This document shows, piece after piece, positions 17,654-63,196 of a DNA stretch of 64,000 nucleotides (position 1 is its first letter; every line of letters starts with the position of its first letter). Position numbers and translations under genes: made by a program. A model generated the notes under the pieces. It saw only the letters and a list, made by a program, of their open reading frames with translations, was not told the DNA's origin and searched no databases. The stretch comes from Patescibacteria group bacterium (GTDB lineage Bacteria > Patescibacteriota > JABMPQ01 > JAQVVF01). The stretch lies in contig JBAZSC010000001.1 in assembly GCA_041662665.1 (NCBI GenBank), positions 129,511 to 193,510 on the forward strand, in the 5' to 3' direction.

Positions 17654-17663
17654 ATTATAAAAA

Positions 17664-17690
17664 AGGCGAGATCGAAAAAGATCTCGCCTT
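17664..17690. terminator. hairpin AAGGCGAGATC-gaaaaa-GATCTCGCCTT between the two paralogs
   Basis: Perfect 11-bp stem. Weak T tract. Confidence 0.45.
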
Positions 17691-21701: not shown

Positions 21702-21860
21702 AATATTTTAAAAGCCAGCAAAATAAAATGCTGGTTTTTTTAATTTAGTAATGATAAAATAATTTGACAAGTTAAATAAGTTAGACTAGTTAGACTTGTT
21801 AGATTAGTTCGTTAACTTATTTAACCAGTCTAACAAATCTAACCAGTCTAACAAATATTC

Positions 21861-22973
21861 ATGTATCTTTCTTCTCTTCAACTTAAAAATTTTCGCAATT
21901 ACAAAGATTTTGAATCAAGTTTCACCAATGGCTTGATTATTTTGACTGGCCAGAATGCTTCCGGAAAAACTAATTTATTAGAAGCAGTTGAATTATTGTC
22001 ATTATCAAAATCTTTTCGTGCCAGGTCAGAATACGATTTAATTTTATTTGGTATGGATTTCGCCAAAATTTTAGGAACATCACAGAAAAATAATCACCAA
22101 ACAAAATTAGATATTACTATTGATTCATTAACTTCCAAAAATCAAAAAGTAATTAAAATTGATGGTTTAAAAAGTCGCGCTTTTGATTTGATCGGCGAAT
22201 TAGTTACTGTACTTTTTTCTCCAGAAGATTTGAATTTAGTTAATTCAGCGCCACAACTTCGCCGACGTTATTTAGATGTTGTCATTTGCCAGATTAATAA
22301 AGACTATTGCCGAAATTTGTCCGAATACAAAAAAGTTTTAATTAATCGAAATCAGCTTTTAGCTAATATCAAAGATGGTTATGCAAAAAAAGAGGAATTA
22401 AGTTTTTGGAATGAAAAATTAATTGATTTAGGAACAAGGATTATTATCGAACGCCAAAAAACTTTACAATTTTTTAATACTAAATTGTCAGAAATTTACA
22501 ATGATATCTGCGATACTAAAGATCAAAAACTTCGTATAATTTATCTACCAAATTTGCCTTTGTTAAAAGATTCAGACATCAAAAAATTATTTGAACAAGA
22601 ATTAAATAATAAATACGAAAGAGAAATTTATAAAACTTACACTTTAGTTGGTCCGCATCGAGATAATTTTGTTTTTGAACTTAATAAAAAGAGATTAGCC
22701 ATCTTTGGTTCGCGAGGTGAATATCGCAGCGCAATATTAGCTTTAAAATCTGCAGAATTAGATTTTATTGAACAAAGCTTGGGAGAACGACCGATTCTTT
22801 TGCTTGATGATGTTTTTTCTGAATTAGATGAAAAAAGACGCAATCACATGTTTGATTTAGTCAGACGCCAGCAAACTTTTATCACTTCTGCTGATTTTGT
22901 CGGACTTGAAGTTGGTTTTGTTAGAGATGCGCAAGTACTTCAAATCAAAAATGGAGAAATAACGAATAAATAA
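21861..22973 (+). CDS. recF: DNA replication and repair protein RecF
   Basis: LQLKNFRNYKDFESSF...GQNASGKTNLLEAVELL (Walker A). SMC-like ABC ATPase, 370 aa. Confidence 0.85.
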   Translation: MYLSSLQLKNFRNYKDFESSFTNGLIILTGQNASGKTNLLEAVELLSLSKSFRARSEYDLILFGMDFAKILGTSQKNNHQTKLDITIDSLTSKNQKVIKIDGLKSRAFDLIGELVTVLFSPEDLNLVNSAPQLRRRYLDVVICQINKDYCRNLSEYKKVLINRNQLLANIKDGYAKKEELSFWNEKLIDLGTRIIIERQKTLQFFNTKLSEIYNDICDTKDQKLRIIYLPNLPLLKDSDIKKLFEQELNNKYEREIYKTYTLVGPHRDNFVFELNKKRLAIFGSRGEYRSAILALKSAELDFIEQSLGERPILLLDDVFSELDEKRRNHMFDLVRRQQTFITSADFVGLEVGFVRDAQVLQIKNGEITNK

Positions 22974-22974
22974 C

Positions 22975-23075
22975 AAAATCCAAATTCCAAACAAATCACA
23001 AATAACAAACGACAAATCGTCGATTTTGTAATTTGGATTTTGTAATTTGTTTGGAATTTGGTATTTGTAATTTAT
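22975..23075. repeat. intergenic composite palindrome, 'caaatcccaaat' family (copy 1)
   Basis: ccaaattccaaacaaatcacaaataacaaacgacaaatcgtcgattttgtaatttggattttgtaatttgtttggaatttgg is a long imperfect inverted repeat. The same sequence family recurs at 26252-26360, 37489-37612, 48279-48330/48700-48762 and 50612-50715. Confidence 0.7.
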
Positions 23076-23081
23076 TTCGAG

Positions 23082-24293: not shown

Positions 24294-26252
24294 ATGAACA
24301 TATCAACTTTAGCAAAAAAATTAGGTTACCATAGCCAAGAAATGCGCAAGATGATTGAGGCAATGGGATATCGACTTCGACCAACAGCGTCGAAGATTTC
24401 TGATAAAAAAGCAAAAGAAATTACCAAAAAAGTAGAAAAGCTAGAAAAGGAAAAAACTCTAGAAATGAAAGAAGAACAGAAAAAAGTTGAAAAAGCCAAA
24501 GAACCAAAAAAACTTTATGTCGCCCAAACTATTACAGTTAAGGATTTCGCACAAGTTTTAGAAATGGAAGTTACTGATGTCATTAGACAATTGATCCAGG
24601 AAGGCATCATGGCAACAATCAATGAAGAAATTGATTTTGAAACAGCGAGTATTATTGCTGAAGAATTAGGCCATAAAATTGAATTAAAAAAAGAAGAAAA
24701 AGATTTGATTAAGGAAAAAGGAGTTCGCAAACAGATTCTCGAAGATTTATCTCATGAAGAAGAAAAGAATTTAAAGCCTCGTCCTCCAGTTGTTGTTGTC
24801 ATGGGTCACGTTGATCATGGCAAGACAAAATTATTGGATGTCATTCGCGAAACAAATATTATTGCTACTGAAGCAGGAGGTATTACTCAAAAAATCGGTG
24901 CTTATCAAGCAAAATGCAATGGCAAAGTCATTACGTTTTTAGATACTCCTGGTCACGAAGCTTTCAAAGCAATGCGCGAAAGAGGTGCAAAAGTTACTGA
25001 TATGGCAATTCTTGTTGTTGCAGCTGATGACGGTGTTATGCCTCAAACAGAAGAAGCAATTGCGCATGCCAAAAATGCTGGCGTGCCAATTATTGTTGCT
25101 ATCAACAAAATAGATAAAGAAGGTGCTGATCCAGAAAAAGTAAAAAGACAGCTCGCTGATTTAGGTTTGCAACCAGAAGATTGGGGAGGCGATACAATTA
25201 TGGTTGAAATATCTGCCAAAATGAATAAAAATATCGATAAGCTTTTAGAAATGGTTTTATTGCAAGCGGAAATTTTAGAATTAAAAGCCAACCAAGAATC
25301 AAAAGCCATAGGCACAATCATTGAAGCAAACAAAGATCCCAAAAAAGGTCCAGTTGCTACAGTTTTGATTCAAAATGGAACTTTGAATTTGGGCGATTAT
25401 GTTACTTGTGGCAGTATCTATGGAAAAATCAAGGCAATGGAAAATTTCTTAGGCAAAAGAATAAATCATGCTAAGCCATCAACTCCAGTTCAAATTTTAG
25501 GTCTTACAGCAGTTCCAGATTCTGGCGATATTTTGCAAGAAGAAAAATCCAAAGAAGCAGCTCGAGAAAAAATTGCCAAAATCGCAAAAGCAGAAATCAA
25601 GATTAAACGCAATTTGACTCCAGAAGAAGAAAGAAAAATTAAAAAATTAAATATAATTTTAATTGCTGATTTTTATGGATCTCTTGAAGCAATTATTGAT
25701 GAGCTAAACAAAATCAATTCCAAGCAAGTTATGCCTCAAATCATTGATTATTCTGCTGGCAAGATTACTGAATCAAATGTCATGAATGCTCAATCTTCAA
25801 ATGCAATTATTTTTGGTTTTAATTCTAAGCCAACAACTGTTGCATCTCGTCTTGCCGAAGATAAGCATGTCAAAATATTTTCCTACGATATTATTTACGA
25901 ATTAATTGACGAAATCAAAAAACAATTGAGTTCTTTGATCGAGCCAGAAGTCATTAAGACAAAATTAGGCAAACTTAATGTTTTAGCAATTTTCAGATCT
26001 GAAAAGAAAAGAAAAATTATTGGCGGCAGAGTCTTGTCTGGCTTCCTAGCAAAAGATTCAATTGTAAAAATAATCAGAGAAGATGTAGAAATTGGCCAAG
26101 GAAAAATTACTACTGTTCAAAAAAATATGGCTGATGTACAAAAGGTAGAAGCAGGTTCAGAATGTGGAATGTCAATTGATACGACTGTCAAAGTTAAAGA
26201 AGGTGACGTGATTGAAGCTTGGAAAGAAGAAATCAAAAAAATCACTTTATAA
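24294..26252 (+). CDS. infB: translation initiation factor IF-2
   Basis: G-domain VVVVMGHVDHGKTKLLD, DTPGHEAF and NKIDK motifs. 652 aa with a short N-terminal region. Confidence 0.9.
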   Translation: MNISTLAKKLGYHSQEMRKMIEAMGYRLRPTASKISDKKAKEITKKVEKLEKEKTLEMKEEQKKVEKAKEPKKLYVAQTITVKDFAQVLEMEVTDVIRQLIQEGIMATINEEIDFETASIIAEELGHKIELKKEEKDLIKEKGVRKQILEDLSHEEEKNLKPRPPVVVVMGHVDHGKTKLLDVIRETNIIATEAGGITQKIGAYQAKCNGKVITFLDTPGHEAFKAMRERGAKVTDMAILVVAADDGVMPQTEEAIAHAKNAGVPIIVAINKIDKEGADPEKVKRQLADLGLQPEDWGGDTIMVEISAKMNKNIDKLLEMVLLQAEILELKANQESKAIGTIIEANKDPKKGPVATVLIQNGTLNLGDYVTCGSIYGKIKAMENFLGKRINHAKPSTPVQILGLTAVPDSGDILQEEKSKEAAREKIAKIAKAEIKIKRNLTPEEERKIKKLNIILIADFYGSLEAIIDELNKINSKQVMPQIIDYSAGKITESNVMNAQSSNAIIFGFNSKPTTVASRLAEDKHVKIFSYDIIYELIDEIKKQLSSLIEPEVIKTKLGKLNVLAIFRSEKKRKIIGGRVLSGFLAKDSIVKIIREDVEIGQGKITTVQKNMADVQKVEAGSECGMSIDTTVKVKEGDVIEAWKEEIKKITL

Positions 26253-26360
26253 ATCCCAAATCCCAAAAAACAAACAAATAACAAATTACAAATCACAATC
26301 CGTCGACTTTGTAATTTGTTATTTGGGATTTGTTTGGAGTTTAGAATTTGTAATTTTACG
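26252..26360. repeat. intergenic composite palindrome, 'caaatcccaaat' family (copy 2)
   Basis: aaatcccaaatcccaaaaaacaaacaaataacaaattacaaatcacaatccgtcgactttgtaatttgttatttgggatttgtttgg, lying between infB and rbfA. Confidence 0.7.
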
Positions 26361-27795: not shown

Positions 27796-28276
27796 AATTA
27801 ATAAAATAAGTAAAATTAATAAAACGACGAAATAAAAACAAAAAAATGGCAAAAATAAATCGAATAGAAGATTTAGATGCATGGCAAGAGGCAAGAAAAC
27901 TTTGTCAAGGAATATATCTTATTACAAATCATTTTCCAAAATATGAACTTTATAATATTATGAAGCATTTGAGAGAAAATGGTCGAGGAGTACCTGCTAA
28001 TATTGCAGAAGGATTTGGCAGATATTTTTTCAAGGAAAAATTAAGATTTTATGGAATAGCTAAGGGTTGTTTAGAAGAGATGAGAAATGATATTTATTTA
28101 TCTTATGACAGTAAATATATTAACAAAGAAATATTCAACAAATTTATCAATCAGATTAATAAAGTTTGCAAACAAATTAATGGACTGATTTCTATTACCC
28201 TTCAATTTATGAAAAAGCATTAAAAATTTCTATTAATTTTATTTCTTATTAATTTTACTAATCTTACTTATTTTAC
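27793..28276 (+). mobile_element. IVS-like element: four-helix-bundle gene carried inside an intergenic inverted repeat
   Basis: Left arm gtaaaattaataaaataagtaaaattaataaaa (about 27793-27825) and right arm ttctattaattttatttcttattaattttactaatcttacttatttta (about 28228-28276) are mutually inverted. They flank the CDS 27846..28223. Confidence 0.45.
27846..28223 (+). CDS. four-helix-bundle protein (family typically encoded in 23S rRNA intervening sequences)
   Basis: LDAWQEARKLCQGIYLITNHFPKYELYNIMKHLRENGRGVPANIAEGFGRYFFKEKLRFYGIAKGCLEEM carries the family hallmarks FP..E.Y.L..Q.RR...S...NIAEG.GR......FL.IA.GS..E. Confidence 0.65.
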   Translation: MAKINRIEDLDAWQEARKLCQGIYLITNHFPKYELYNIMKHLRENGRGVPANIAEGFGRYFFKEKLRFYGIAKGCLEEMRNDIYLSYDSKYINKEIFNKFINQINKVCKQINGLISITLQFMKKH

Positions 28277-30398: not shown

Positions 30399-30971
30399 AT
30401 GTTAATTCCCACAGTCATCGAAAAATCAAATTATGGCGAACGTGCTTATGATATTTATTCCAGACTATTAAAAGATAGAATCGTTTTTTTAGGCGGAGAA
30501 ATTGATGATAATTTAGCTAATACAGTTATTGCTCAATTATTATTTCTTGAATCCGAAGACAAAACAAAAGATATTAAATTATACATTAATTCAAATGGCG
30601 GATCAGTTAGCGCTGGACTAGCAATCTATGATACAATGCAATATATCAAGCCAGATGTGTCAACAATTTGTGTTGGCTTGGCTGCATCAATGGGAGCAAC
30701 TCTTCTTTTAGCTGGTGCTAAAAATAAAAGAATGGCTTTGCCAAATGCTGAAATAATGTTGCATCAAATTATGGGTGGAGTACAAGGCCAGGCATCTGAT
30801 ATTGAAATTACAGCCAAACAAATTTTAAAGCTAAAAGAAAGATTAAATAAAATTATTGCTAAACATACCAATCAGAAATTAACTCAAATTGAACAAGATA
30901 CAGATCGTGATTATTATATGACTTCTGATGAAGCTAAAAAATATGGAATCGTTGATCAAATTATAAAATAA
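30399..30971 (+). CDS. clpP: ATP-dependent Clp protease proteolytic subunit
   Basis: [24 protein letters not shown]...[38 protein letters not shown], with Ser/His catalytic context. Confidence 0.9.
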
Positions 30972-31063
30972 TACAAATATACAAATCTACGCAAATGATG
31001 CGAATATGCAAATTCGTATATTTGTATCATTTGCATAAATTCGTAAATTAGTATTATAATTTT

Positions 31064-36897: not shown

Positions 36898-36965
36898 GAA
36901 AGTTATTAACAAGTTATCATTTGCTATTATCTTTTGGCTTACTTATAATAAAAACATACAAATCT

Positions 36966-37085
36966 AAAAACAAATGTCATCCTGAGCCAAAGCTTCGGAT
37001 CCCGAGAATAAGAAAATAATTACGGGATTCTTCCTGCCCGCAGTGCTACAGCGTTGCAGGCGGGCGGCTTTGGCCTCAGAATGAC
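36966..37085. repeat. GC-rich nested hairpin element (copy 1 of 2)
   Basis: The outer stem is gtcatcctgagccaaagc...gctttggcctcagaatgac and the inner stem ggatcccg...cgggattc. It also contains cctgcccgc..gcgggcgg. A second copy with the same outer and inner stems lies at 60553-60630. Confidence 0.55.
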
Positions 37086-37142
37086 GCGAAATTTTTCATT
37101 TTGCATTTATAATTTTTAATTTTTTGAGAGGTGGTGATAATT

Positions 37143-37424
37143 ATGACTAAGATGGCTTTAATTGAAAAACTATCTGCCAAATTAGGTATTTCAAAAAGAG
37201 AAACTGATAAATACATTTCAACATTTGTTGAAATCGTCACTGAAGAGTTAAAACAGAATAATAAAGTTGCTGTTACTGGTTTTGGTACTTTTTCTGTTTC
37301 AGATCGAAAAGCAAGAGAAGGTGTCAATCCACAAAATCCAAAACAAAGAATTACAATTCCAGCGATGAAATTACCAAAATTTACTGCAGGAAAAACACTT
37401 AAAGATAAATTACGTGCTGTTTAA
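37143..37424 (+). CDS. hup: HU/IHF-family DNA-binding protein
   Basis: MTKMALIEKLSAKLGISKRETDKYISTFVEIV...VAVTGFGTFSVSDRKAREGVNPQNPKQRITIPAMKLPKFTAGKTLKDKL. Followed by a hairpin + T-run terminator (37446-37476). Confidence 0.85.
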   Translation: MTKMALIEKLSAKLGISKRETDKYISTFVEIVTEELKQNNKVAVTGFGTFSVSDRKAREGVNPQNPKQRITIPAMKLPKFTAGKTLKDKLRAV

Positions 37425-37488
37425 GATTTTATTTTTATATATTTAAAAAGGCGAGAATCAATTCTCGTCTTTTTTAAAAAACCAAAAA

Positions 37489-37612
37489 AAATCCCAAATA
37501 CCAAATCCCAAACAAATTACAATAACCAAATTACAAAATTTTAAGAATAAGTTTTGTGATTTGTAATTTGTTAATTGTTTGGAATTTGGGATTTGTAATT
37601 TCGACGTTTAAT
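37489..37612. repeat. intergenic composite palindrome, 'caaatcccaaat' family (copy 3)
   Basis: atcccaaataccaaatcccaaacaaattacaataaccaaattacaaaatttt...gttttgtgatttgtaatttgttaattgtttggaatttgggatttgtaattt. Confidence 0.7.
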
Positions 37613-37627
37613 TGTTAAAATCATTTC

Positions 37628-48278: not shown

Positions 48279-48762
48279 AAAAATCCCAAATCCCAAATTC
48301 CAAACAAATTACAAATCACAAAAAACAAAATTGCCCGAACAAAATAAAACTAACAAATTATATAATCTCGAAGACCGAACTTTAGAATTTAGTAAAAGAG
48401 TTGCCAATATGTGCAACGCTTTGCCTAAAAATTATATTAATATTGTTTATATAAATCAGATTTTAAGATCAGGGAGTTCGATAGGTGCTAATTACATAGA
48501 AGCAAATGAATCATTAGGAAAAAAAGATTTTAAAATGAAAGTAAGAATTGCTAGAAAAGAAGCAAAAGAAACAACTTATTGGCTGAATTTAATAATAGAT
48601 GCTAATCCAGAATTTAGAAAAAGAATTGAACCATTATTACAAGAATCAATCGAAATAAGAAATATTTTATCAACAATAATAAACAAATCTAATTAATTTT
48701 TTTTGTAATTTGTATTTTGTATATTGTAATTTGTTTGGAATTTGGGATTTGTAATTTATAAT
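48279..48762 (+). mobile_element. IVS-like element: four-helix-bundle gene carried inside a 'caaatcccaaat'-family inverted repeat, inserted at the junction of the split VirB4 gene
   Basis: Left arm aaaatcccaaatcccaaattccaaacaaattacaaatcacaa (about 48279-48330). Right arm ttgtaatttgtattttgtatattgtaatttgtttggaatttgggatttgtaattt (about 48700-48762). Both flank CDS 48331..48696. Confidence 0.45.
48331..48696 (+). CDS. four-helix-bundle protein (23S rRNA IVS-type family), second copy
   Basis: LEFSKRVANMCNALPKNYINIVYINQILRSGSSIGANYIEANESLGKKDFKMKVRIARKEAKETTYWLNLI. Shares the family pattern with the 27846 gene. Non-ATG (TTG) start per the track. Confidence 0.55.
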   Translation: MPEQNKTNKLYNLEDRTLEFSKRVANMCNALPKNYINIVYINQILRSGSSIGANYIEANESLGKKDFKMKVRIARKEAKETTYWLNLIIDANPEFRKRIEPLLQESIEIRNILSTIINKSN

Positions 48763-50611: not shown

Positions 50612-50715
50612 GCCACAAATCCCAAATTCCAAACAAATTTCAAATTACAAATCACAAAATTGCAAGTTTGTTTATTGTGATTTGTGATTTGTTTGGATTT
50701 TGGAATTTGTAATTT
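50612..50715. repeat. intergenic composite palindrome, 'caaatcccaaat' family (copy 6)
   Basis: ccacaaatcccaaattccaaacaaatttcaaattacaaatcacaaaattgcaagtttgtttattgtgatttgtgatttgtttggattttggaatttgtaattt. Confidence 0.7.
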
Positions 50716-60670: not shown

Positions 60671-60693
60671 AAAGTGCAAAAAATAAAAATGTG

Positions 60694-60921
60694 CTAGAGG
60701 AGACCTTTCTGATTCAAGATTGCGAGATGATTGTGATCCCATTTCATACGAGGTACCATCTTCATTGCTTCGCGAACACGACTCAGCTCTTCAGGAGTGC
60801 TAGCAGATCTGACATGAGCGAACAACTTTTCACGAAACATGATACCTGGAAAAGAAATTTCACCCTTTACATACGACTGAGTCAAAGCAACAGGATCTTC
60901 ATTCTGAAACTTGAGTGCCAT
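60694..60921 (-). CDS. small hypothetical protein (75 aa) in a GC-rich island
   Basis: Start MALKFQNEDPV lies 9 nt after a GGAGG SD. Has its own terminator. The overlapping plus-strand 112-aa ORF was judged spurious. The track ORF extends upstream to 61005. Confidence 0.4.
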   Translation of the reverse strand: MALKFQNEDPVALTQSYVKGEISFPGIMFREKLFAHVRSASTPEELSRVREAMKMVPRMKWDHNHLAILNQKGLL

Positions 60922-61060
60922 TTCCCTTTTCCTCCGAAGCCCGCCAAAGTTTGTAAAGGCGGGGAAAAGGCCTTCCGCTGTTTCTCGCGGAAAGCCGGAA
61001 ACCATGAGAAAAACAACTTGTTAATATAATATAACAAAATCAATATAAAGCAAGTCCTTT

Positions 61061-63196
61061 TTACTCAAAATGAGTAATTTGGTCAAAATCAGCCATTTTT
61101 TCCCTTAATAGAGGGAATTTTTTTATGTCATTTTTCGCCACAAAATTTTCTGCTTCTGCTTTTGCCAGTTTTAACAAATTTACATCCATTAAAGAAGCCA
61201 TTTTTAAATCAGGCAAACCAGATTGCCTAATTCCATAAACTTCACCAGGACCGCGCAATTCCAGATCTTTTTCTGCTAAAACAAATCCATCATCGCAATC
61301 AACCAAAGCCATTAGTCTATCATAAGATTTTTGTGACATAGAATCAGAAAACAGAAAGCAAAAAGACTGTTTTTCACTTCTGCCAACACGTCCTCTGAAT
61401 TGATGAAGTTGTGACAATCCAAAACGTTCTGCTCCTTCAATCATCATGATTGTTGCATTTGGAAAATCAATTCCAACTTCAATTACAGATGTTGAAACTA
61501 ATATCTTGACTTCATTATTTTTAAATTTTAATAGTGTTTTTTCTTTTTCTTCTTTTTTTAATTTGCCGTGCATCATTGCGATTTCAAATTCCGGAAAAAT
61601 TTCTTTGCTTAATTTTTCATATTCTTCTTCAACTGCTTTCACATCATCCCATTGATTATTTTGAGGACTAAATTCTTTTTCATCATTTTTTTCTTCGCCT
61701 GCCTTAATTCTTGGACAAACAACAAAAACCTGCCTGCCTAATTTTATTTTTTCTCTAATAAATTCATAAGCTTTATCTCGATTATATGGTGCCACTAATT
61801 TAGTTAGAATTTTTTTTCGTCCAAATGGTTTTTCTTTCAAAATGGAAATATCCAAATCACCATAAAGTCCTAATGCTAAAGTTCTTGGAATTGGTGTTGC
61901 TGTCATTGATAACAGATGCGGCGTTTTTTTCGTAGAAACGTTGCAATGCAACGTCGCTACGGCGTTCAATTTTTTTAATTTCGCTCTTTGCTCAACACCA
62001 AAACGATGCTGTTCATCAATTACAGTTAAAGCCAAATTTTTAAATTTTACATCTTCTTGAATAACTGCGTGCGTGCCGATCAAAATGTCAACATCGCCAT
62101 TTTTAATTTTATTCAACAAAATCTTTTTACTGACAGTCTTGTCATTGAATTTACGATCAACGCGAGTCAACAATGCCAGCGTAGCGACAGGGCAGTGCCC
62201 TGTCGCTACGAGTTTTTGTATTGTTTCAAAGTGTTGTTTAGCCAAAATTTCTGTTGGCGCCATTAAAATTGATTGTTTTTTCTGATTCGCAATCAAATAC
62301 ATTGCCATCAATGCGACAACAGTTTTGCCAGATCCAACATCACCTTCCAACAATCTATTCATTGGCTTATTTTTTTCTAAATCTAAGAAAATTTCCCAAG
62401 CTGATATCTTTTGATCTTTTGTTAATTTGAAGGGTAGGGAATCAACAAATTTTTTAATTAAATCTTTATTAAATTTAATTTTAAATGCTTTATTTTCCTG
62501 CCATTTTTTCTTTTTTAATAAATTATTTAATTGTAATAAAAATAATTCATCAAAAGCTAATCTTAACCTTGCTTTTTTCAAAATTTCTAAATTATCTGGA
62601 AAATGAATTTGTTTTAATGCCTCGCCTAAATTTATCAAGCTTAATTTTTCTTTAATTTCTTCTGGCAAAAAGTCATCAAATTTATCCGACAATTTTAGCA
62701 ATGGTCTTAGAATAAATCTTAAATATTTTGAAGACATGCCATTTGTTTCAGAATAAACTGGCAAAATTTTTCCTGACCCATCGTTAAATTTTTCAAAAGC
62801 AGGGGAATTCATTGATACCGAATTATAATTCAATTCAACTTTGCCATTCAATGTTACAAATGTCCCAACGCGAAAATATTTTTCTAAATATGGCTGATTA
62901 AACCAAACAATTTTAAGATCGCCAGATTCATCAGAAATTTTCGCTTCAGTCAAAGTCAGCCATCTTTTTGAAGTCGGCTTGTTTTTTATTGATTTGATCA
63001 TTCCTCTGATTGTCTGTTTCTCATTTATTTTTAAATTTTTGATTAAAGTAATATTGCTAAAATCATCATAGCGAAAAGGAAAATAAAAAAATAGATCAGA
63101 AACAGTTTTCAATTCTAATCTTTCTAAAGCACGTTTATGCTTCAGATCAAATTTCCGCAAACTATTCAATTTTGTTGATAATCTAACATTTTTCAT
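61061..63196 (-). CDS. recG: ATP-dependent DNA helicase RecG
   Basis: LLEGDVGSGKTVVALMAMYLIA...MAPTEILAKQH (motif I/Ia), VIDEQHRFGV (motif II), LSMTATPIPRTLAL (motif III). N-terminal wedge domain. Carries two in-frame 10-aa palindromic insertions (see findings). Confidence 0.85.
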   Translation of the reverse strand: MKNVRLSTKLNSLRKFDLKHKRALERLELKTVSDLFFYFPFRYDDFSNITLIKNLKINEKQTIRGMIKSIKNKPTSKRWLTLTEAKISDESGDLKIVWFNQPYLEKYFRVGTFVTLNGKVELNYNSVSMNSPAFEKFNDGSGKILPVYSETNGMSSKYLRFILRPLLKLSDKFDDFLPEEIKEKLSLINLGEALKQIHFPDNLEILKKARLRLAFDELFLLQLNNLLKKKKWQENKAFKIKFNKDLIKKFVDSLPFKLTKDQKISAWEIFLDLEKNKPMNRLLEGDVGSGKTVVALMAMYLIANQKKQSILMAPTEILAKQHFETIQKLVATGHCPVATLALLTRVDRKFNDKTVSKKILLNKIKNGDVDILIGTHAVIQEDVKFKNLALTVIDEQHRFGVEQRAKLKKLNAVATLHCNVSTKKTPHLLSMTATPIPRTLALGLYGDLDISILKEKPFGRKKILTKLVAPYNRDKAYEFIREKIKLGRQVFVVCPRIKAGEEKNDEKEFSPQNNQWDDVKAVEEEYEKLSKEIFPEFEIAMMHGKLKKEEKEKTLLKFKNNEVKILVSTSVIEVGIDFPNATIMMIEGAERFGLSQLHQFRGRVGRSEKQSFCFLFSDSMSQKSYDRLMALVDCDDGFVLAEKDLELRGPGEVYGIRQSGLPDLKMASLMDVNLLKLAKAEAENFVAKNDIKKFPLLREKMADFDQITHFE
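61931..61961. repeat. 31-nt GC-rich palindrome inside recG (cgtagaaacgttgca-a-tgcaacgtcgctacg)
   Basis: Imperfect inverted repeat with GTAG...CTAC termini. On the minus strand it encodes VATLHCNVST in frame. Confidence 0.6.
62180..62210. repeat. 31-nt GC-rich perfect palindrome inside recG (cgtagcgacagggca-g-tgccctgtcgctacg)
   Basis: 15-bp perfect arms with GTAG...CTAC termini. On the minus strand it encodes VATGHCPVAT in frame. Confidence 0.65.

Follow-up and report, generated by a model that had tools for sequence, protein, structure and literature searches.

A gene for the ATP-dependent DNA helicase RecG, located in a 64,000-nucleotide stretch of contig JBAZSC010000001.1 from a Patescibacteria group bacterium (termed the window), raises the question of how two short GC-rich palindromes came to lie in frame within the coding sequence of a helicase when the GC content of the window is 31.6%. 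The palindromes, termed P1 and P2, each correspond to a segment of 10 residues in the predicted protein. The comparisons described here indicate that P1 and P2 are very probably copies of a short mobile repeat, a repetitive extragenic palindrome (REP) of the "double-foot" type that is associated with subclass 2.4 of the REP-associated tyrosine transposases (RAYT/TnpA_REP), and at the level of sequence both fall within the definition of double-foot REPs. The gene and the two palindromes are placed as follows.

61061-63196, minus strand: recG, host of P1 and P2, encoding the 711-amino acid ATP-dependent DNA helicase RecG.
62181-62209, minus strand: probable REP copy P1, a perfect 29-nt palindrome with the coding strand GTAGCGAC-AGGGCACTGCCCT-GTCGCTAC and the peptide VATGHCPVAT (RecG residues 330-339).
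61932-61960, minus strand: probable REP copy P2, a 29-nt palindrome with one arm decayed, coding strand GTAGCGAC-GTTGCATTGCAAC-GTTTCTAC and the peptide VATLHCNVST (RecG residues 413-422).

The sequence at 62180-62210 reads cgtagcgacagggca-g-tgccctgtcgctacg with two arms of 15 nt that pair perfectly on either side of one central base (15+1+15), and the related sequence at 61931-61961 reads cgtagaaacgttgca-a-tgcaacgtcgctacg with 13 of the 15 arm positions paired. The read-out agrees with the initial annotation of this DNA, which had described perfect 15-bp arms at the first position and a homologous palindrome at the second. P1 is the longest perfect GC-rich palindrome of the window and P2 is a two-mismatch relative of the same design. 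Within the window the octamer GTAGCGAC occurs three times compared with 0.16 expected, the pattern GTAGNNAC-N10-16-GTNNCTAC twice compared with 0.00 expected, and the 29-nt design, allowing up to three mismatches, twice compared with 0.01 expected, with no other occurrences. The two palindromes are spaced 249 nt apart in recG and share the reading phase GTA GCG ACx, and each is composed of a single 29-nt palindrome with a center of 1-3 nt and no spacer. P1 presents the foot GTAG...CTAC on both strands and P2 is likewise bounded by GTAG...CTAC, which is the double-foot arrangement. The predicted RNA hairpin of P1 has a 14-bp stem with an energy of -27.7 kcal/mol (z = -6.8), and that of P2 has 13 bp with one mismatched position per side breaking the stem (-17.4 kcal/mol, z = -4.1); both folds form long GC-rich stems that are more stable than those of all 200 of 200 shuffled sequences. 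The palindromes are real and far above chance expectation.

Some artefacts of library preparation can yield perfect palindromes, and a chimeric hairpin introduced in this way, or another error of sequencing or assembly, would give the same picture. An assembly artefact is nevertheless excluded, to a degree that leaves it a negligible probability, because independent assemblies of other samples match the window with 100% identity: an ENA contig (L250, ERZ27249449) over 4548 nt across recG with both palindromes included, and a Logan contig (L251, SRR18595301) over the first 10,969 nt. The recG reading frame is also kept.

The identity of the host gene is clearly defined. The window RecG is 100% identical to a database protein (P0001) that is named RecG by both NCBI and JGI, and the RecG of Thermotoga maritima (PDB code 1GM5) aligns to residues 4-684 with E = 3.4e-136. 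The matches to Pfam include RecG_wedge, DEAD, Helicase_C and RecG_dom3_C, and the helicase motifs are intact, with GDVGSGKT at residues 285-292, MAPTEILA at 312-319, DEQHRFG at 394-400 and MTATPIPRT at 431-439, so that the wedge domain is accompanied by superfamily 2 motifs I, Ia, II and III. RecG, which the initial annotation had called an essential helicase, is not normally the product of an essential gene.

The best 120 RecG homologues were aligned, and a codon alignment was made with the DNA of the five closest, four of which share 83-84% identity with the window RecG (L001, L002, L004 and L007) and one 68% (L006). P1 and P2 are absent from all five of these orthologues. Because relatives with a RecG as close as 83-84% identity lack them, P1 and P2 are, judged by this alignment, recent lineage-specific insertions in frame, as had been anticipated. 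The further proposal that each palindrome adds exactly 10 codons holds for insertion in frame and fails for net length. At site 2 (P2) every relative is empty and the net gain in the window is 8 codons; compared with 1GM5 the site corresponds to a 12-residue gap located after the helix that follows motif II and before the motif III strand. Site 1 (P1) is a hypervariable linker of 6 amino acids in distant Patescibacteria and 12-26 amino acids in close relatives, and in the window it is formed by the 10 palindrome-encoded residues.

The AlphaFold2 model of RecG has a mean predicted local distance difference test score (pLDDT) of 85.1 and a predicted template modeling score of 0.79. Insert 1 is modeled as coil (pLDDT ~73) that joins helix 316-331 to strand 340-343, and insert 2 is also modeled as coil, with residues 412-420 having a pLDDT below 50. 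Both inserts are thus predicted to lie in variable surface loops of helicase domain 1, in line with the surface loops that had been suggested for them. Since the frame is open and the helicase motifs are intact, the two units are most likely translated as loop decorations of about 10 residues.

The exact 29-mer of P1 is present at two more loci of the same 645-kb genome, both intergenic (L220 and L249/L253), and the search for further copies to which the initial annotation pointed has in this way returned two identical units. The flanks of the copies in L220 and L249 are unrelated and the contigs are AT-rich. At each locus the 29-mer ends 9-10 nt before a start codon, and the genes beside the copies encode a UDP-glucose 4-epimerase (MFA6296248.1) and CutA (MFA6296183.1), both of which are exact matches to the same Patescibacteria group bacterium genome (645,164-bp contig) as the window RecG. 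The source genome contains at least four copies at several loci, three of which are identical 29-mers. Because the copies of P1 elsewhere have unrelated flanks, the shared unit is 29 nt running from GTAG to CTAC, rather than the 30 nt first given, and the flanking C/G lies outside the family.

These copies bear directly on an origin in place, in which a template switch or quasipalindrome correction during replication would have generated the palindromes with no mobile element involved. Template switching yields perfect arms, and site 1 is hypervariable, with other palindromes present there in relatives. However, the arms have no similarity to the orthologous sequence of the relatives, this genome has the identical 29-mer at two further, unrelated loci, and near-identical units are found in other phyla and inside RayT genes (see below). 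An origin in place is accordingly rejected as highly improbable, being effectively refuted by the identical copies elsewhere.

The wider distribution of the unit was taken from two scans. In the GTDB representative genomes the scan for CGTAGCGAC-N10-16-GTCGCTACG gives at least 120 loci; among the matches listed, nearly all cores are themselves palindromic, and the lineages represented include Acidobacteriota, Planctomycetota, Chloroflexota, Bacteroidota and Patescibacteria, among others, with several genomes having many copies. A metagenome scan for GTAGCGAC-NNNGC-N1-5-GCNNN-GTCGCTAC gives at least 118 loci, and the consensus of the matches listed is GTAGCGAC-NNN-GCATGC-NNN'-GTCGCTAC with the NNN positions covarying. 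When the two decayed bases of P2 are repaired, the resulting plus strand sequence, CGTAGCGACGTTGCAATGCAACGTCGCTACG, is found verbatim in a Chloroflexota metagenome-assembled genome (MAG; L017), and center variants that differ in one base are present in Roseiflexus and Chloroploca as well as on a second contig of that MAG (L119). Taken as sequence relationships, these matches support the two palindromes being members of a repeat family and not a local oddity. Many of the scan matches have complementary flanks, which fits the report that some REPs are inserted at the center of host palindromes (Di Nocera et al. 2013, PMC3733652). At GC-rich loci most long open reading frames (ORFs) over the matches have the palindrome at the ORF end or are probably spurious, and these were not counted as intragenic. 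A full-text literature search for the two 9-mers returned matches to primers and short hairpin RNAs only.

A subfamily of the form cgtcg-CGTAGCGAC-GNNTGAAnTTCANNC-GTCGCTACG-cgacg is present in many copies per genome in Acidobacteriota loci and in one Planctomycetaceae MAG, which comprises the following loci.

L013, L016, L050, L057, L074, L077, L084, L087, L101 and L104: loci of the Planctomycetaceae MAG.

In this MAG and in other Planctomycetota loci, additional GTAGCGAC half-sites are placed ~72 nt upstream and ~95 nt downstream, an arrangement that looks like REP clusters (similar to bacterial interspersed mosaic elements). The palindrome was also considered as two abutted terminal inverted repeats, representing an excision footprint or a minimal miniature inverted-repeat transposable element, and this was dropped, as the unpaired half-sites in Planctomycetaceae form REP clusters and not transposon ends.

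The connection with RayT transposases emerged from reading the AT-rich metagenome loci individually. At these loci the palindrome lies in frame inside real genes, including a HemK/PrmC-type methyltransferase (L169) and two large ORFs resembling NPPY methylases (L189 and L208). A further ORF of 179 amino acids (L239) has an HUH motif with the palindrome inside it and matches the Pfam family Y1_Tnp with 24.8 bits against a cutoff of 23. A tblastn search with this ORF identifies homologues in five of the loci that had been selected by the palindrome, and in four of these five (L239, L248, L179 and the Brevefilum locus L126) the palindrome lies inside the RayT-type gene at the same point, directly following MPNH[IV]H. 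In these ORFs the palindrome is read in differing frames, giving SDVACNVAT in one case and DDVATPRRGVATED in another, and because of this the conserved entity is the DNA and not the peptide. Among the best 120 database homologues of the L239 ORF the name "REP element-mobilizing transposase RayT" recurs, and the majority have palindrome-derived peptides after the HUH motif, for example CRDVACNVST, VETLHCNVST and VETGHAPSLQ. The internal repeat of a Nostoc RayT (P0230), GTAGAGACGTTGCATTGCAACGTCTCTAC, is identical to P2 at 27 of 29 positions and is read in the same frame. The RayT motifs NH[IV]H, WQ and Y-I-x-N/L-NP agree with the row for subclass 2.4 in the table of Quentin et al. (PMC6006769), and the four RayT ORFs together with the Nostoc protein place the window units in direct relation to the REPs found inside tnpA_REP genes of that subclass. 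The link from the GTAG ends to REP elements and RAYT transposases, proposed initially from the window letters, is borne out at these loci. In an all-against-all clustering of the ORFs near the loci of the GTDB scan there is no strongly recurrent neighbor, the largest cluster being present at 11 of ~120 loci. In the region 4688-7723 of L239 the RayT gene is flanked by a LexA-like repressor ORF on one side and by AlkA- and Ogt-like ORFs for alkylation repair on the other, assigned by eye from the translations.

From published work on REP/RAYT systems we infer mobilization by a resident RAYT. A transposase of the Y1/HUH type would bind the folded hairpin on single-stranded DNA, recognize the GTAG foot and then cut and rejoin the strand, so that copies would be made. 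Copies within genes would survive only where the net length is divisible by three and the loop is tolerant, and the phase containing TAG would be avoided; in P1 and P2 the phase used gives V-A-T..., and the neighboring phase would read TAG, a stop codon. P1 is probably the younger copy, and the two G/C-to-T changes on the coding strand of P2 suggest that it is the older of the two and that, in a genome with 31.6% GC, AT pressure is causing it to decay. The hairpins would form in the recG mRNA as well and could slow ribosomes or RNases.

Several points weigh against the explanation by double-foot REPs. Four known copies is a low number for a REP family, although the low copy number of group 4 RAYTs does fit, and two of the four are in one gene only 249 nt apart, which is unexpected for random insertion. 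At the P1 copies compared there is no target-site duplication and no conserved flank, and the chemistry of insertion is unreadable from the sequence. No RayT or Y1_Tnp (PF01797) gene is present in the 64-kb window by tblastn or by Pfam searches of 30 ORFs of 100-280 amino acids, and tblastn found no RayT gene in ~5 kb of extra flanks, which were derived from short contigs of other assemblies; the combined search covered ~10% of the 645-kb genome. That the inserts are translated and that the decorated RecG is active is read solely from the intact ORF.

The lack of a transposase in the window and the extra flanks would also be expected if the copies were passive relics or imports, no longer moving in a reduced genome that has no RayT. 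They could have been acquired by recombination with foreign DNA from neighbors or hosts carrying the family, or inherited from an ancestor that lost the transposase. This is an unlikely explanation that still carries some weight: near-identical hairpins are present in Chloroflexota, Cyanobacteria and Bacteroidota, and the close relatives have no copies of the window palindrome family (family A) in ~70 kb of sampled sequence. Against it, three 29-mers are identical despite strong AT pressure, which speaks for copies made recently inside this genome; import of one and the same 29-nt sequence in three independent events is unlikely, and the transposase search extended over a small part of the genome.

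The recG genes of the relatives contain further GC-rich palindromes, which lack the GTAG foot and are located in the loop that holds P1 and in a third loop at approximately residue 500.

L002, 10997-11024: GC-rich palindrome in recG, no GTAG foot.
L004, 10996-11025: GC-rich palindrome in recG, no GTAG foot.
L004, 11506-11529: GC-rich palindrome in recG, no GTAG foot.
L007, 2368-2395: GC-rich palindrome in recG, no GTAG foot.
L006, 1161-1182: GC-rich palindrome in recG, no GTAG foot.
Window, 61652-61699, minus strand: third variable RecG loop, residues 500-515, GEEKNDEKEFSPQNNQ.

These palindromes belong to two families, GGAGGCGAGA...TCTCGCCTCC and CCTGCCTGC...GCAGGCAGG. Site 1 is occupied in L002 by GGAGGCGAGAAA-TCGG-TTTCTCGCCTCC, in L004 by the same sequence with a change of one compensatory pair, and in L006 by CCTGCCTGCAGGCAGG. 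The third loop contains AGTCGAGATT-TCGG-AATCTCGCCT in L004 and GGAGGCGAAATTCA|TGAATTTCGCCTGC, encoding GGEIHEFRLQ, in L007. In the window RecG this loop is an insertion relative to 1GM5, its residues 501-514 have a pLDDT below 50, and its peptide KEFSPQNNQWDDV resembles HEFRLQNNQWDDV of L007; tentatively, the window loop may be what is left of a palindromic insert after decay, with relatives retaining the intact form.

Further palindromes and inserts occur elsewhere in the window and in relatives. An intergenic hairpin between two long ORFs of the window (17663-17690), AAGGCGAGATC-GAAAAA-GATCTCGCCTT, shares AGGCGAGA/TCTCGCCT with the palindromes in the recG genes of the relatives, and an intergenic sequence of L006 (3644-3665) has CCTGCCTGC in common with the recG insert of the same locus. 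RecG proteins from more distant Patescibacteria have inserts at the P2 site (L129, residues 396-441; L130, residues 412-455; L131, residues 413-454) that are encoded by low-complexity DNA resembling tandem heptamers (GAATTAC or CAATCTA repeats), and L130 also has a small GTAGC-TTCG-GCTAC hairpin at this site in the same V-A...A-T phase.

Another reading is that the hairpins are kept in recG by a function, either as an mRNA or DNA structure tuning the expression of RecG or as a metal site formed by the His-Cys residues of the inserts (GHC and LHC). The RNA hairpins are very stable, and at site 1 a compensatory pair separates the palindrome of L002 from that of L004 (GGAGG/CCTCC and GAAGG/CCTTC, respectively). 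Of the seven intragenic GC-rich hairpins in ~120 kb of clade ORFs, six lie in recG, which makes up 10.6% of this sequence, and these represent ~5 independent events. REPs in repair genes have also been held unlikely to be fortuitous (Di Nocera et al. 2013, PMC3733652). The enrichment is suggestive only, because the loci were chosen for containing recG, which biases the test, and two of the hairpins are homologous. Close relatives lacking both inserts indicate that no conserved function is required, the pairing of P2 is already being lost, insert 2 is modeled as disordered, and the insert peptides are the direct product of a DNA palindrome for which other loci use different reading frames. Retention of the hairpins by function is on this evidence improbable.

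A related proposal, which is doubtful, is that recG in this clade is a preferred sink for hairpin repeats, as at least three unrelated palindrome families, the GTAGCGAC double-foot REPs and the two families described above for the relatives, occupy three loops in different relatives and almost no other sampled gene has any of them. If this were true and went beyond the tolerance of the loops, it would suggest a mechanistic or selective link between the gene of a helicase acting on branched DNA and hairpin elements, one that would parallel the suspicion of Di Nocera et al. for repair genes and might work in a genome without a transposase of its own.

The surroundings of recG and the remainder of the window include other structured sequences. 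Many intergenic spacers hold AT-rich, low-complexity inverted repeats of ~80-130 nt, which differ in sequence and are of one style, for example AAATCCCAAATTCCAAACAAATCACAAA.

22965-23076, 50615-50710, 37483-37614, 26251-26356, 30968-31057, 21771-21852 and others: AT-rich inverted repeats, intergenic.
27846-28223 and 48331-48696: genes for 23S rRNA intervening-sequence proteins (PF05635).

The AT-rich repeats, which may be terminators, match the Rfam families of plant and animal microRNA precursors only as generic hairpins. At gathering thresholds no Rfam family is found in the 64-kb window, and at E <1 there are only chance matches of generic hairpins to microRNAs, placed around two GC-rich intergenic stretches; the window contains no tRNA genes. 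The gap between radA and recG (60691-61029) is ~340 nt of 60-67% GC with ORFs of 103 and 112 amino acids on opposite strands and has no Pfam or Rfam match. In relatives an ORF of 74-103 amino acids is called at the radA-recG position, and the gap could be an unrecognized structured RNA or a small protein gene. A second gap of 730 nt between ORFs (36898-37627) includes an island of 73% GC (37022-37091) with the hairpin potential CCTGCCCGC...GCGGGCGG. In this area a very weak match to transfer-messenger RNA (tmRNA) is present on the minus strand (36914-37144; 10.5 bits, E = 0.06), far below the gathering threshold, and ARAGORN finds no tmRNA.

Read as double-foot REPs, P1 and P2 extend the REPs of the GTAG/RAYT type to a Candidate Phyla Radiation (CPR) genome of ~645 kb, a setting poor in repeats and transposases, and make recG a further entry among the repair genes published as carrying in-frame REPs. 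They explain two odd 10-residue segments of RecG that would otherwise resemble annotation errors or lineage-specific motifs, and the 29-nt unit provides a marker by which this population can be followed. Related recG genes, with their recurrent palindromes, form a small natural test set for asking if repair genes simply tolerate their REPs or are affected by them. Among the top-ranked literature results, no work joining CPR/Patescibacteria with REP, RAYT or REPIN elements was found.

Comparison with known systems places the units most closely with the double-foot REPs, with more distant resemblances elsewhere. The mobile GC clusters and double-hairpin elements of fungal mitochondria, whose genomes are AT-rich, are likewise short, GC-rich and palindromic, and as they spread they can come to lie inside coding sequence. 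To our knowledge they have no GTAG foot and no link to an HUH transposase, and being from another domain of life they serve as an analogy only. Rickettsia palindromic elements (RPEs) of the RPE-1 type are ~100-150 bp and specific to Rickettsia. The window units share with RPEs the insertion of palindromic repeats in frame into genes that stay functional, and they differ in having GTAG in place of the CGTC tag and in that RPEs are not known to have a RAYT association; RPE-4 and RPE-6 have been assigned to the CGTC REPs (PMC3733652). The comparison with RPEs made in the initial annotation is therefore sound as an analogy and does not extend to membership, given a 29-nt unit with GTAG in Patescibacteria. 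REPINs (Bertels and Rainey 2011, PMC3116915) are similarly hairpin-forming, non-autonomous and thought to be copied by a single-copy RAYT, but a REPIN is composed of two inverted REPs with a spacer, and the window unit is a single symmetric hairpin with none.

In-frame REPs carrying GTAG or CGTC have been reported mainly from genes for replication and repair, where one ORF may hold two of them and where a species may have no other tagged ORFs (Di Nocera et al. 2013, PMC3733652). P1 and P2 resemble these as in-frame insertions of ~7-10 residues in repair and helicase genes, which in that work include uvrA/B/D, recBCD, polA, dnaE2 and HrpA; recG is not named in its main text or in the supplementary files checked. 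The canonical GTAG REPs of that study have the tag on one side only, whereas the window units are tagged at both ends, and its organisms are Rickettsia and free-living, mostly GC-rich bacteria as compared with Patescibacteria here. Double-foot REPs and in-frame REPs inside tnpA_REP genes have been described for subclass 2.4, equivalent to group 4 of Bertels and present in Cyanobacteria and Bacteroidetes and, in a scattered way, in other phyla (Quentin et al. 2018, PMC6006769), and group 4 RAYTs are characterized by low repeat copy numbers and many classes (Bertels et al. 2017, PMC5581495). The window units agree with the double-foot REPs in having a long hairpin with a 5' GT[AG]G and its 3' complement C[TC]AC, a low copy number and a distribution over many phyla, and they differ from those described so far in that the host is a 645-kb Patescibacteria genome and that recG holds two of its four known copies. 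The type of element and its behavior have already been described, and what is new is the host lineage and the host gene.

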